Origin: Escherichia coli
Lineage (GTDB): Bacteria; Pseudomonadota; Gammaproteobacteria; Enterobacterales; Enterobacteriaceae
Reading direction: 5' to 3' (one strand)
DNA: 64,000 nt
NCBI RefSeq assembly: GCF_036507355.1
Contig: NZ_AP027877.1
Below, piece by piece: positions 3,001 through 6,000 of the stretch. The number at the start of each line of letters is the position of its first letter. The stretch's first letter is position 1. The position numbers are program-made.

Positions 3001-6000
3001 CTACGACGCCTGGCCGCACAAAGTCAGTCTCGGCGTCGAGTATCAACATACCTTTAAGGCGATTAATCAACGTAACGGAGAGCGCAACAACGCGTTTCTC
3101 ACCATTGGAGTGCACTGGTAAATGCGTAAGTTCATTTTCGTATTGCTGACACTGCTTTTGGTCAGCCCTTTTTCCTTTGCGATGAAAGGTATTATCTGGC
3201 AACCACAAAACCGTGATAGTCAGGTTACCGATACCCAGTGGCAGGGGCTGATGAGTCAGTTACGTTTGCAAGGCTTCGATACCCTGGTTTTGCAATGGAC
3301 CCGTTACGGCGATGCATTTACCCAGCCAGAACAGCGCACGTTATTGTTTAAGCGGGCCGCAGCTGCGCAACAGGCTGGCCTGAAGCTGATTGTCGGGCTG
3401 AACGCCGATCCGGAATTTTTTATGCACCAGAAACAGTCGTCCGCAGCGCTGGAAAGCTATCTTAATCGCCTGCTGGCTGCCGATCTCCAGCAAGCCAGAT
3501 TATGGAGCGCCGCGCCTGGCGTAACGCCGGATGGCTGGTACATCAGCGCGGAAATTGACGACCTGAACTGGCGCAGCGAAGCCGCCCGTCAGCCTTTGCT
3601 AACATGGTTAAACAACGCGCAGCGGCTGATTAGCGATGTTTCAGCAAAACCGGTTTATATCAGTAGTTTTTTCGCCGGAAACATGTCGCCAGATGGCTAT
3701 CGCCAACTGCTGGAACACGTTAAAGCAACCGGCGTTAATGTCTGGGTACAGGATGGCAGCGGCGTGGATAAACTTACCGCTGAACAGCGTGAACGTTATC
3801 TACAGGCCAGCGCCGATTGCCAGAGTTCCGCCCCAGCAAGCGGCATTGTTTATGAACTGTTTGTCGCCGGCAAAGGCAAAACCTTTACAGCGAAACCGAA
3901 ACCGGACGCAGAAATTGCCTCGCTGTTAGCGAAACGTTCCTCTTGCGGTAAAGACACTCTCTATTTCTCTCTGCGCTATTTGCCCGTCGCGCACGGCATT
4001 CTCGAGTATTAAATCTCCTCCAGGTAAGTCGGGTACGACCTGGCTTACCTCTTTCGCTCTCGTCAGAATTCCATCAAGATTAATTGCTAAAAAGCGTGCT
4101 AAAGAAAGAAGATCGTTATCGGCGAACGGGCCGATCACTCATGCAGGAAGCATAGATCCTTTGAGCGGAGTTTCTGATATCTGAGGAGTGCGAAATGCAA
4201 TTGAGCAGCAGTGAACCTTGCGTGGTGATCCTGACCGAAAAAGAGGTAGAGGTAAGCGTCAATAACCATGCTACGTTTACCCTTCCGAAAAACTACCTGG
4301 CCGCCTTCGCGTGCAACAATAACGTCATTGAACTCTCAACGTTAAATCACGTATTAATCACCCACATCAACCGTAACATCATCAACGATTATCTGTTGTT
4401 TTTAAATAAGAACTTAACCTGTGTAAAGCCCTGGTCGCGGCTGGCTACCCCGGTTATCGCTTGTCATAGCCGTACACCGGAAGTGTTCCGGCTAGCCGCC
4501 AACCACAGCAAGCAGCAACCTAGCAAACCCTGCGAAGCGGAGTTGACGCGCGCATTGCTTTTTACCGTATTGTCTAACTTTCTTGAGCAATCGCGGTTTA
4601 TTGCCCTACTGATGTATATCTTACGCAGCAGCGTCCGCGACAGCGTCTGCCGCATTATTCAAAGCGATATTCAGCATTACTGGAATCTGCGAATTGTCGC
4701 CAGTTCGCTATGTTTAAGCCCCAGCCTGCTCAAAAAGAAATTAAAAAACGAAAATACCAGCTATAGCCAGATTGTCACAGAGTGTCGTATGCGTTACGCC
4801 GTACAGATGTTATTGATGGATAACAAAAATATCACTCAGGTGGCGCAATTATGTGGCTATAGCAGCACGTCGTACTTTATCTCTGTTTTTAAGGCGTTTT
4901 ACGGCCTGACACCGTTGAATTATCTCGCCAAACAGCGACAAAAAGTGATGTGGTGAAGGGCAAAGCGGAAACGGATAAGACGGGCATAAATGAAGAAGAA
5001 ATGGCGCGCCCTGCAGGATTCGAACCTGCGGCCCACGACTTAGAAGGTCGTTGCTCTATCCAACTGAGCTAAGGGCGCGTTGATACCGCAATGCGGTGTA
5101 ATCGCGTGAATTATACGGTCAACCCTTGCTGAGTCAATGGCTTTTGATCTGGTTGCTGAACAAGTGAACGACCGCGTCTGATTTTCTGATTTATTTCGCT
5201 ATAGCGGCAAACAAATGCACACCGCTGCGCATCTGAATCAAGAAAACCCGTATTTTCATGTATCAAAGTACAATTTACCGCCCTAACGGAAAATTGTCCG
5301 CTCCTATGAGACTGGTAACTATGAAACCAACGTCGGTGATCATTATGGATACTCATCCTATCATCAGAATGTCTATTGAAGTTCTGTTGCAAAAAAACAG
5401 TGAATTGCAGATTGTCCTGAAAACGGATGATTACCGCATAACCATCGATTATCTCCGAACCCGTCCTGTTGATTTAATCATTATGGATATAGACTTGCCC
5501 GGAACAGACGGTTTTACCTTCCTGAAAAGGGTAATGACTCCAACTTATTGATAGTGTTTTATGTTCAGATAATGCCCGATGACTTTGTCATGCAGCTCCA
5601 CCGATTTTGAGAACGACAGCGACTTCCGTCCCAGCCGTGCCAGGTGCTGCCTCAGATTCAGGTTATGCCGCTCAATTCGCTGCGTATATCGCTTGCTGAT
5701 TACGTGCAGCTTTCCCTTCAGGCGGGATTCATACAGCGGCCAGCCATCCGTCATCCATATCACCACGTCAAAGGGTGACAGCAGGCTCATAAGACGCCCC
5801 AGCGTCGCCATCGTGCGTTCACCGAATACGTGCGCAACAACCGTCTTCCGGAGCCTGTCATACGCGTAAAACAGCCAGCGCTGGCGCGATTTAGCCCCGA
5901 CATAGCCCCACTGTTCGTCCATTTCCGCGCAGACGATGACGTCACTGCCCGGCTGTATGCGCGAGGTTACCGACTGCGGCCTGAGTTTTTTAAGTGACGT

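Follow-up and report, generated by a model that had tools for sequence, protein, structure and literature searches.

An unoccupied DLP12-family attachment site in argU of an Escherichia coli chromosome, possibly vacated by recent precise excision

In E. coli K-12 a defective lambdoid prophage carrying ompT, the 21.3-kb DLP12 (intD to ompT), is integrated at the tRNA gene argU, as a first-pass annotation of the DNA studied here correctly stated. In the window, by which we mean the whole 64-kb stretch of DNA analyzed, argU lies directly beside envY. The question raised by this locus is whether the site is truly empty and, if so, whether it never held a prophage or held one and lost it. The parts of the locus are as follows, in window coordinates.

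4195..4956, + strand: envY, encoding an AraC-family regulator of 253 aa; host gene on the B′ side (ORF list)
4957..4999, no strand: B′ arm, the spacer from the envY stop to the core (alignments A1 and A2)
5000..5046, − strand: common core (O), 47 bp, CTTCTAAGTCGTGGGCCGCAGGTTCGAATCCTGCAGGGCGCGCCATT (four-way alignment)
5002..5078, − strand: argU, intact tRNA-Arg(UCU), 77 nt (ARAGORN, anticodon TCT)
5047..5320, no strand: B arm, comprising the 5′ portion of argU and the intergenic region between argU and fimZ (BLAST against K-12, alignments)
5110..5137, − strand: promoter-like site upstream of argU, TTGACT-16-TATAAT (consensus scan, 11 of 12 matches; a consensus match only, with one such site expected by chance in the 600 bp scanned)
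5321..5529, + strand: fimZ′, the first ~70 codons of a fimbrial response regulator (translation, tblastn, K-12 comparison)
5530..6297, − strand: IS1 of 768 bp, its two terminal inverted repeats present (sequence, BLAST against K-12, junction comparison)
6526..7392, + strand: folD, the first intact host gene past the IS1 deletion (ORF list, K-12 collinearity)

The bacterial genes on either side of the site closely match those of K-12. EnvY is 99.6% identical to its K-12 counterpart over 253 aa (tblastn), and the exact EnvY protein of the window is known from occupied and empty loci alike. From the TGA stop of envY (4954-4956) to the 3′ end of argU the gap measures exactly 45 bp (4957..5001), in agreement with the estimate of about 45 bp made earlier, and a terminator scan around this spacer found none. 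The only tRNA gene in the 64-kb window is argU, which is identical to K-12 argU at 77/77 bases and scores 72.1 bits against the Rfam tRNA model RF00005 (5005..5078). The B′ arm is the sequence that lies outside K-12 attR, on the pauD side, save for one SNP, with the closest K-12 mismatch 6 bp outside the core. The B arm is collinear with the bacterial side of K-12 attL, and its best complete-genome match is 99.8%. Further right, the fimZ′ frame enters IS1 and reaches a stop at 5551, giving a 76-aa product.

Aligning the argU flank with prophage-bearing references, the check that had been proposed for defining the att core, delimits it to 47 bp (5000-5046). The four-way alignment of the window, K-12 attL, K-12 attR and the attP of phage Kati gives the pattern B-O-B′, B-O-P′, P-O-B′ and P-O-P′, with a core that is identical in all four and covers the last 45 nt of argU, from the anticodon loop to the 3′ end, and 2 nt beyond the gene. 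A 47-bp repeat has been reported at the DLP12 site (PMC6379469). By BLAST, positions 1-5049 are collinear with K-12 nfrB-nfrA-ybcH-envY-attR and positions 5000-5530 with K-12 argU-fimZ; in K-12 the annotated 21,302-bp DLP12 (intD...ompT) sits between these two blocks. Identity between the window and every occupied locus compared ends exactly at 5046. The window holds one copy of the core, and its self-BLAST contains no repeat at the argU locus. The interval from envY to the region upstream of fimZ contains only the 45 bp and the tRNA, with no phage gene, and tblastn with K-12 queries (E<=1e-3) found no homologue of OmpT or IntD in the 64 kb, so the first reading, that integrase, ompT and phage genes are missing here, is borne out. 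Because there is a single core, both arms are bacterial, argU is intact and phage DNA is lacking, the window almost certainly presents an unoccupied attB (B-O-B′) in argU with no prophage integrated, and the description of the argU 3′ end as unoccupied stands. The site would be cognate to an IntD-type tyrosine integrase of DLP12-family lambdoid phages; from its identity with sites occupied in other genomes, we infer that such an integrase would recombine this attB with attP.

The history of the site is best approached through the closest relatives of the strain. Only eight public contigs encode a 990-aa NfrA identical to that of the window; four of them read envY then ompT, or end in a contig break inside the core, and the other four were grouped with these by shared neighboring genes. 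Three relatives (L020, L021 and L022) have 0 mismatches to window positions 1-5046, and their identity with the window ends at the core edge. On the other side, a contig of the L021 assembly differs from window positions 6223-21077 by 4 mismatches and includes the same IS1/folD junction, which is common to the window and its relatives. Where the right-flank contigs of the relatives both overlap, there is 1 SNP outside a 70-bp repeat in ~12 kb. Other probes reached different lineages: the 76-aa FimZ′, used for the attL side of the relatives, matched only other, more distant empty-site lineages, and the S49 head protease, used for their prophage contig, matched unrelated lambdoid prophages. Exact EnvY, FolD and CysS are very common (25,000-84,000 blocks) and uninformative for tracing relatives, exact PurK is known from the genome of the window alone, and the IntD variants are all very common, leaving the integrase allele of the relatives untraceable by cluster.

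These relatives are lysogens that carry two different DLP12-family variants on identical flanks. The prophage arms of L020 and L022 have 0/3615 and 0/3151 mismatches to K-12 DLP12 (100% identity); in their flank, 62 of 5,897 positions differ from K-12 (~1%). The L021 arm is another allele, with 31/4157 mismatches (0.75%) to K-12 DLP12. All switch points between prophage and flank fall inside the 150 bp that contain the core. The prophage arms have thus not diverged along with the chromosome, and prophage DNA has therefore recently entered or been replaced in this clade. Since relatives with 0 mismatches carry two different variants, the argU site, judging from these alignments, turns over within the clade of the strain. 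At least three derived SNPs in the SNP table are private to the window, and none unites the lysogens against it; with few SNPs, the mini-phylogeny of the window and its relatives is an unresolved star. The L020 prophage is defective, with a tail-fiber assembly gene joined to a head protease gene, capsid and tail genes missing and ISEc35 inserted. The defective structure of the relatives resembles that in the complete genome 23AR1101, whose deletion junction differs by ~260 bp, so inheritance versus transfer is undecided by that comparison. The prophage-specific tail-fiber assembly protein of the relatives is absent from the records of the window's genome, and thus the prophage has not moved elsewhere in that genome.

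Was the site, then, vacated or never used? The first-pass annotation called it a naive attachment site, a term that we do not retain: excised and never-used sites look identical, and the relatives with 0-mismatch flanks are lysogens with two variants. We assign a probability of roughly 0.55 to the full statement that this is the attB of a DLP12-family site vacated by recent precise excision. The lysogen-type state is found in the exact-NfrA contigs, and the window sits on a SNP branch of its own. Having at least three private SNPs, the window offers a loss a real branch on which to occur; with no SNP uniting the lysogens, a single gain would have to fall on an internal branch whose observed length is zero. 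Spontaneous excision of DLP12 in K-12 occurs in fewer than 1 per 100,000 cells, as measured by qPCR (PMC3105296). Because the identical-flank relatives are lysogens with two DLP12-family variants, a recent loss is at least as likely as a site that was never occupied. The competing history, which we consider somewhat the less probable, is a lineage that never held an argU prophage, with its sisters acquiring DLP12-family prophages later in two separate integrations. A perfect attB with no scar fits that history, as does the frequency of the empty state, a contiguous envY-argU-fimZ, in 2,501 of 5,426 complete E. coli genomes (46%). The same can be said of the two prophage alleles on identical flanks, one of them that of K-12 DLP12 despite ~1% flank divergence, and of switch points confined to the core-containing 150 bp, the signature of recent att-specific acquisition. 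Viable phages with int, attP and ompT exist and make gains at argU plausible, and the window, on its own branch, could be an outgroup. Two independent gains are also no costlier, in number of events, than a loss combined with a replacement, and the sequence of the window alone cannot tell precise excision from a never-used site. However, all eight exact-NfrA contigs are of the occupied type (four of them by shared neighboring genes), no SNP supports a lysogen clade without the window, the L020 prophage is defective and hence not a fresh infection, and two gains would be needed between genomes without a SNP over ~17 kb.

It is very improbable that the strain is in fact lysogenic and that its prophage was lost in the sequenced culture, or its attL/attR repeat collapsed by the assembler. 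The nearest relatives are all lysogens and the element is flanked by a 47-bp repeat, as this explanation would have it. Against it, the protein numbers of the chromosome run from NfrA BED23386 and YbcH BED23387 to PurK BED23398 and leave no room for ~25 prophage genes, a prophage-specific protein is missing from the records of that genome, and assemblers do not usually drop unique sequence of 17-24 kb. Had the prophage excised in culture, moreover, that would be a genuine biological event rather than a fault of assembly.

The Campbell model, with site-specific recombination of the lambda type, is the established frame for integration and excision. Under recent excision, the integrase would exchange strands within the 47-bp core that attP has in common with the 3′ portion of argU. 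After integration the complete tRNA gene would stand at attL, and attR, adjoining envY, would have a 3′ piece of the tRNA (pauD in K-12), with ompT just inside attR; excision would be the exact reversal. The emptiness seen here would then be a recent, scar-free loss, which we favor over an ancestral, never-used state, with Int/Xis excision as the likelier route and recombination of the two 47-bp repeats by RecA as the less likely one. Next door, sfmACDHF and part of fimZ would then have been lost in an independent adjacent deletion mediated by IS1. More broadly, we would put at just under even odds the idea that natural E. coli still gain, swap and lose DLP12-family elements att-specifically over very short times. 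Within one clade the argU site exists in three states: empty, with an arm identical to K-12 DLP12, and with an arm diverged by 0.75%. To one side of the site the members of that clade show 0 SNPs over 5 kb, and to the other 0-1 SNP over ~12 kb. If the idea is true, the window would be the empty intermediate of a continuing cycle in which OmpT is switched on and off. Elements of the DLP12 family are usually described as grounded fossils.

The IS1 beside the site accounts for a second difference from K-12. Its flanks, CCTGAAAAG and AATTATCTT, differ, meaning that there is no target-site duplication, and it joins fimZ at about codon 70 to the folD-sfmA intergenic region. Missing relative to K-12 are 6,310 bp, comprising sfmA, sfmC, sfmD, sfmH, sfmF and fimZ after about codon 70. 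With the flanks of a complete IS1 6,310 bp apart in K-12 and the sfm operon gone, the IS1 deletion named in the first-pass annotation is upheld, and the element at 5530-6297 has, as read from its junctions, the features of an IS1-mediated adjacent deletion. Its description of the region as streamlined is right in that IS1 removed the sfm operon, but it holds in a relative sense only, as the window also carries an adhesin and type I secretion (T1SS) island, at least 17 kb long and missing from K-12. All 32 of the K-12 genes compared from ppiB to cueR are intact in the window. Against complete RefSeq E. coli genomes the window reaches a best identity of only ~98.6%, which had suggested Shigella or a decayed genome as its source; this reading was rejected, given the 32 intact genes and the record of the exact proteins as E. 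coli (BED23386 to BED23416). An origin as E. coli B/BL21, or as a K-12 derivative cured of DLP12, was considered and rejected, given flanks 1-2% off K-12 and no complete-genome match.

What the empty site says about OmpT depends on the rest of the genome. The absence of ompT, reported earlier without limit, holds for the 64-kb window (tblastn negative) but cannot be extended to the genome from the locus, as at least 170 complete E. coli genomes have ompT at another place although their envY-argU site is empty. This bound follows from 2,501 genomes with the empty site and 3,095 of 5,426 with ompT (2,501 + 3,095 - 5,426). We consider it probable, though not certain, that the strain lacks OmpT. 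It is unlikely that the locus is empty and the strain nonetheless not ompT-negative, with an omptin on another lambdoid prophage or a plasmid and the phenotypic inference failing, even though the genomes just counted show the combination. O157:H7 strains appear in both lists (in TR01, ompT lies ~0.9 Mb from argU), and 25 of the ompT places in complete E. coli genomes are on plasmids. Weighing against it, the ompT adjoining envY in the relatives belongs to the argU prophage, which is unrecorded from the window's genome, and by the same counts the ompT-less share of empty-site genomes is at most 93%, still a majority.

An empty argU site is a common, well-described state of E. coli, and the finding itself is already known; current understanding is unchanged and the added value is modest. 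For annotation, the locus can be labeled with confidence as an empty attB of the DLP12/argU phage family, and the strain is predicted to be open to lysogenization by ompT-carrying phages such as Kati and PhiR26_1. The probable lack of OmpT bears on the degradation of antimicrobial peptides and recombinant proteins. Because identical-flank relatives here carry two different prophages, sequence alone does not justify calling an empty tRNA attachment site naive, and the case may serve to illustrate how fast a supposedly fossil prophage turns over.

Compared with known systems, the window is K-12 minus DLP12, cut exactly at the core. The K-12 site (attL at argU/intD, attR as pauD beside envY) shares the same tRNA, 47-bp core and host arms, whereas the window has one core, no prophage, flanks ~1-2% different and one SNP in the 45-bp spacer. 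E. coli B/BL21 and Shigella are without the ompT that K-12 carries on DLP12; without it, recombinant proteins and antimicrobial peptides are cleaved less at dibasic sites, and Shigella lacking it has stable IcsA. The argU attachment site of DLP12 goes back to Lindsey, Mullin and Walker 1989, in the account of that work given in PMC6379469. In the survey of Ramisetty and Sudhakari (2019; PMC6379469), DLP12 was at this locus in 74% of 638 Escherichia/Shigella genomes, and the window falls into the minority class without it; that survey did not address ancestral versus secondary emptiness, and the closest relatives of the window are occupied. DLP12 loss as studied by Wang et al. (2010; PMC3105296) yields the same end product, a single att site and a functional argU, but they deleted DLP12 by lambda-Red, and an 85-bp scar remains in their strain, whereas the window has no scar and belongs to a non-K-12 lineage. 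Ten complete Escherichia phages of 45-50 kb carry the argU core and ompT, with OmpT at 98.7-99.7% aa identity: Kati (PP925833), Turner, PhiR26_1, PhiR29_1/2, PhiR30_1, PhiR49_1, PhiR68_2, 2G7b and ev243. In Kati the order is integrase (387 aa), attP, ompT and an appY-like gene, and these viable argU-integrating phages have an attP with the identical 47-bp core between the gene for a 387-aa integrase and ompT-appY. Holding none of their DNA, the window would provide the cognate attB of these phages.

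The argU site of the window is an unoccupied attB in structure. The interval between envY and fimZ contains the following features, and the tRNA is the only one that ARAGORN found in the entire window:

4195-4956, plus strand: envY, an open reading frame of 253 aa with 99.6% identity to K-12 EnvY
5000-5046, minus strand: core O, the 47-bp attachment core, CTTCTAAGTCGTGGGCCGCAGGTTCGAATCCTGCAGGGCGCGCCATT
5002-5078, minus strand: tRNA-Arg, anticodon TCT (argU), called by ARAGORN and at the same place by the Rfam tRNA model (72.1 bits)
5137-5110, strand of the tRNA: promoter-like TTGACT-16-TATAAT, a consensus match only
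5321 onward, plus strand: fimZ', about 70 codons, then interrupted by IS1
5530-6297: IS1, 768 bp, complete with both terminal repeats, interrupting fimZ (flanks 5321-5529 and 6298-6525)

The envY stop (4956) and the 3' end of the tRNA (5002) face each other across exactly 45 bp, in line with the roughly 45 bp of the first-pass annotation, and argU aligns as identical to its K-12 counterpart. Using annotated K-12 sequence (NC_000913.3, 555000-592000) as the reference, window 1-5049 aligns collinearly at 99.05% identity to nfrB-nfrA-ybcH-envY plus the DLP12 attR end, and 5000-5530 at 99.06% to argU plus the 5' portion of fimZ. Collinearity picks up again at 6298-9267, in the folD-sfmA intergenic region. 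Between the blocks that abut at argU here, K-12 has its annotated cryptic prophage DLP12 of 21,302 bp (intD, xisD through appY and ompT), in agreement with the first-pass annotation. With K-12 OmpT and IntD as tblastn queries there was no match within the 64-kb window, which bears out the reported lack of an integrase or ompT here.

A three-way alignment, extended to four with the attP of the isolated phage Kati, defined the 47-bp core, which begins at the first base of the argU anticodon loop and extends 2 nt beyond the CCA end. Around it the window reads B-O-B', K-12 attL B-O-P', K-12 attR P-O-B' and Kati attP P-O-P', which is the textbook Campbell pattern. The site had thus been placed correctly, described correctly as unoccupied, and tied correctly to DLP12 and ompT. 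The 47-bp figure for the repeat has also been published (PMC6379469).

The closest relatives of the window carry a prophage at this site. In the complete-genome collection the nearest genome reaches only ~98.6% identity. Exact-protein matches place the window on an E. coli chromosome of 4,643,937 bp, among proteins BED23386 (NfrA) to BED23416 (SelU). The exact 990-aa NfrA of the window occurs in only 8 contigs of the assembly index. At every place displayed, these contigs show ompT and appY after envY, or break at window 5029 (a k=31 Logan contig); four of the eight were not displayed and were assigned to the displayed places by common neighboring genes. The end at 5029 fits a duplicated core, since a unitig must break there. 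Three NfrA contigs, L020 (GCA_047852605.1), L021 (GCA_905398585.1) and L022 (GCA_044688185.1), have 0 mismatches to window 1-5046, and the inner core edge is exactly where identity stops. On the other flank, a GCA_905398585.1 contig has 4 mismatches to window 6223-21077, a stretch that takes in 75 bp of IS1 and its folD junction, and a GCA_047852605.1 contig begins at that junction and has 8 differing sites over 21 kb. On both flanks, then, the window's nearest relatives are lysogens. A prophage-specific tail-fibre-assembly protein is recorded from three relatives with no record from the window's genome, so the prophage was not simply relocated there.

The right arm of the prophage (attR-ompT-appY-tfaX-ybcY) is 100% identical to K-12 DLP12 in L020 (14899-18513, 0/3615 mismatches) and L022 (0/3151), on a chromosomal flank that differs from K-12 at 62 of 5,897 positions (~1%), the closest only 6 bp outside the core. 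L021, with an identical flank, carries another arm (31/4157 mismatches to K-12, 0.75%), and, a 70-bp repeat aside, its assembly is identical to that of L020 across ~12 kb of the right flank. Two arm types on near-identical genomes indicate that prophage DNA has been exchanged at argU. Every arm/flank switch point lies within the 150 bp containing the core, and the sequences point to att-specific events rather than to a larger piece of chromosome having been replaced by homologous recombination. This turnover of the attachment site among near-identical genomes is the one mildly interesting result. A 70-bp unit lies in direct repeat in the purK-ybcF intergenic region (window 12793-12985; 123-bp overlapping copies, 97.6% identical), and its copy number differs between the window and a close relative (L047/L058). 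In L020, an ISEc35 insertion has a 9-bp overlap in K-12 coordinates. At another locus (GCA_039758115.1, 13131-17933) the order is folD, integrase fragment, methyltransferase, ompT, ybcH; it has no envY, fimZ or sfm operon and so keeps ompT without a recognizable prophage.

The first-pass annotation had called the site naive, which exceeds the evidence: the nearest relatives are lysogens on both flanks, and a vacated site has the same sequence as one never occupied, so the site alone does not discriminate. We favor precise excision, at a probability of about 0.55. A single loss would have occurred on the comparatively long branch of the window; the SNP table is a star, with 3 or more derived SNPs private to the window against 0-1 for each lysogen, and no site in it groups the lysogens against the window. 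Excision is mechanistically documented because DLP12 excises in K-12, at < 1e-5 per cell (PMC3105296), and Hha is reported to induce it (PMC4632033). That the site was ancestrally empty, with two later gains in relatives, is a serious possibility that we place short of an even chance. Such a history needs overall as few events as loss, gains are plausible through viable phages, and K-12-identical arms on a diverged flank, next to the other arm on an identical flank in L021, argue against simple loss. However, the prophage of at least one relative is plainly defective, with tfa joined to a head-protease gene, capsid and tail genes missing and ISEc35 inserted. We consider an artefact very improbable.

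Excision or not, the empty state is ordinary. Of 5,426 complete E. coli genomes, 2,501 match a 1.5-kb ybcH-envY-argU-fimZ' query in one piece (coverage of 80% or more), while in K-12-like genomes the query matches only to the inner edge of the core, with the remainder at a second place; a published survey found DLP12 at the argU locus in 74% of 638 genomes (PMC6379469). The empty argU site is a well-known, frequent polymorphism, and the finding is already known. The strain as a whole probably lacks ompT, since the copy observed in the relatives belongs to the prophage that is missing here. Still, ompT is present in 3,095 of the same 5,426 genomes (25 places are on plasmids), so at least 170 pair an empty envY-argU site with ompT elsewhere, and O157:H7 strains are in both lists. 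An empty site is not a safe guide to an ompT-negative strain, and the earlier claim at strain level went further than the evidence.

The IS1 deletion noted beside argU is real. One end of IS1 abuts fimZ at codon ~70 and the other the intergenic region between folD and sfmA. Compared with K-12, 6,310 bp are gone (sfmACDHF and the fimZ 3' part), and the flanks of IS1 carry no target-site duplication, which looks like an IS1-mediated adjacent deletion. The complete genome of pig isolate HCP6S3_I2, whose background is 1.4% diverged, has nearly the same deletion, but its two junctions are shifted by 1 bp and 6 bp; the fimZ'/IS1 junction is also present in six short-read contigs from other lineages, and 62 complete genomes have IS1 in fimZ within a few hundred bp. 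This stretch is therefore a recurrent IS1 target, and looks like a hot spot with recurrent independent deletions. The 76-aa FimZ' product was not found in the close relatives' assemblies, though they share the folD-side junction. In the relatives, IS1 may therefore simply be inserted upstream of sfmA, and the deletion may be confined to the lineage of the window.

Elsewhere in the window, ybbP and selU lack the ~7.3-kb K-12 RhsD element (rhsD, ybbC, ylbH, ybbD, ylbG) between them (34110-34818); ~0.7 kb stands there instead, with an Rfam AgrB antisense-RNA match (34170-34258, minus strand, 53.6 bits vs a gathering score of 40). An STnc480 sRNA match (Rfam, 21084-21150, 87.1 bits) in the allE-glxK intergenic region adjoins a short collinearity break with K-12 (21149/21170). 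A 2.8-kb insertion (43248-46029) separates ybbJ from cueR, adjacent in K-12. Its coding content is one protein of 422 aa bearing a YadA-like membrane anchor (44081-45349), plus two small ORFs that match nothing in Pfam. Giant adhesins and a type I secretion system are encoded on an island (46433-64000) that this K-12 region lacks; the closest complete genomes match it at only 93-95% identity. The island includes:

46433-47608: HlyD-family adaptor
47605-49767: ABC permease/ATPase
49771-53436: Big_13/FG-GAP/RTX protein, 1,221 aa
53486-61831: SiiEA/BapA-like adhesin, 2,781 aa, with two internal 3.1-kb repeats in its gene, 74% alike (55393-58492, 58683-61783)

The argU core is found in 14 Escherichia and 3 Salmonella phage records. 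Core-bearing complete Escherichia phages of 45-50 kb (Kati, Turner, PhiR26_1, PhiR29_1/2, PhiR30_1, PhiR49_1, PhiR68_2, 2G7b and ev243) encode OmpT at 98.7-99.7% aa identity. In Kati, a 387-aa integrase is followed by attP (mis-annotated as tRNA-Pro), ompT and an appY-like regulator; at all occupied loci inspected, ompT is the first gene inside attR, adjoining envY, and the remaining prophage is variable. Core and OmpT in the same phages, together with the Kati order, make ompT a cargo gene adjoining the attP of a living phage family. DLP12 is a decayed member of this family of ompT-carrying argU phages.
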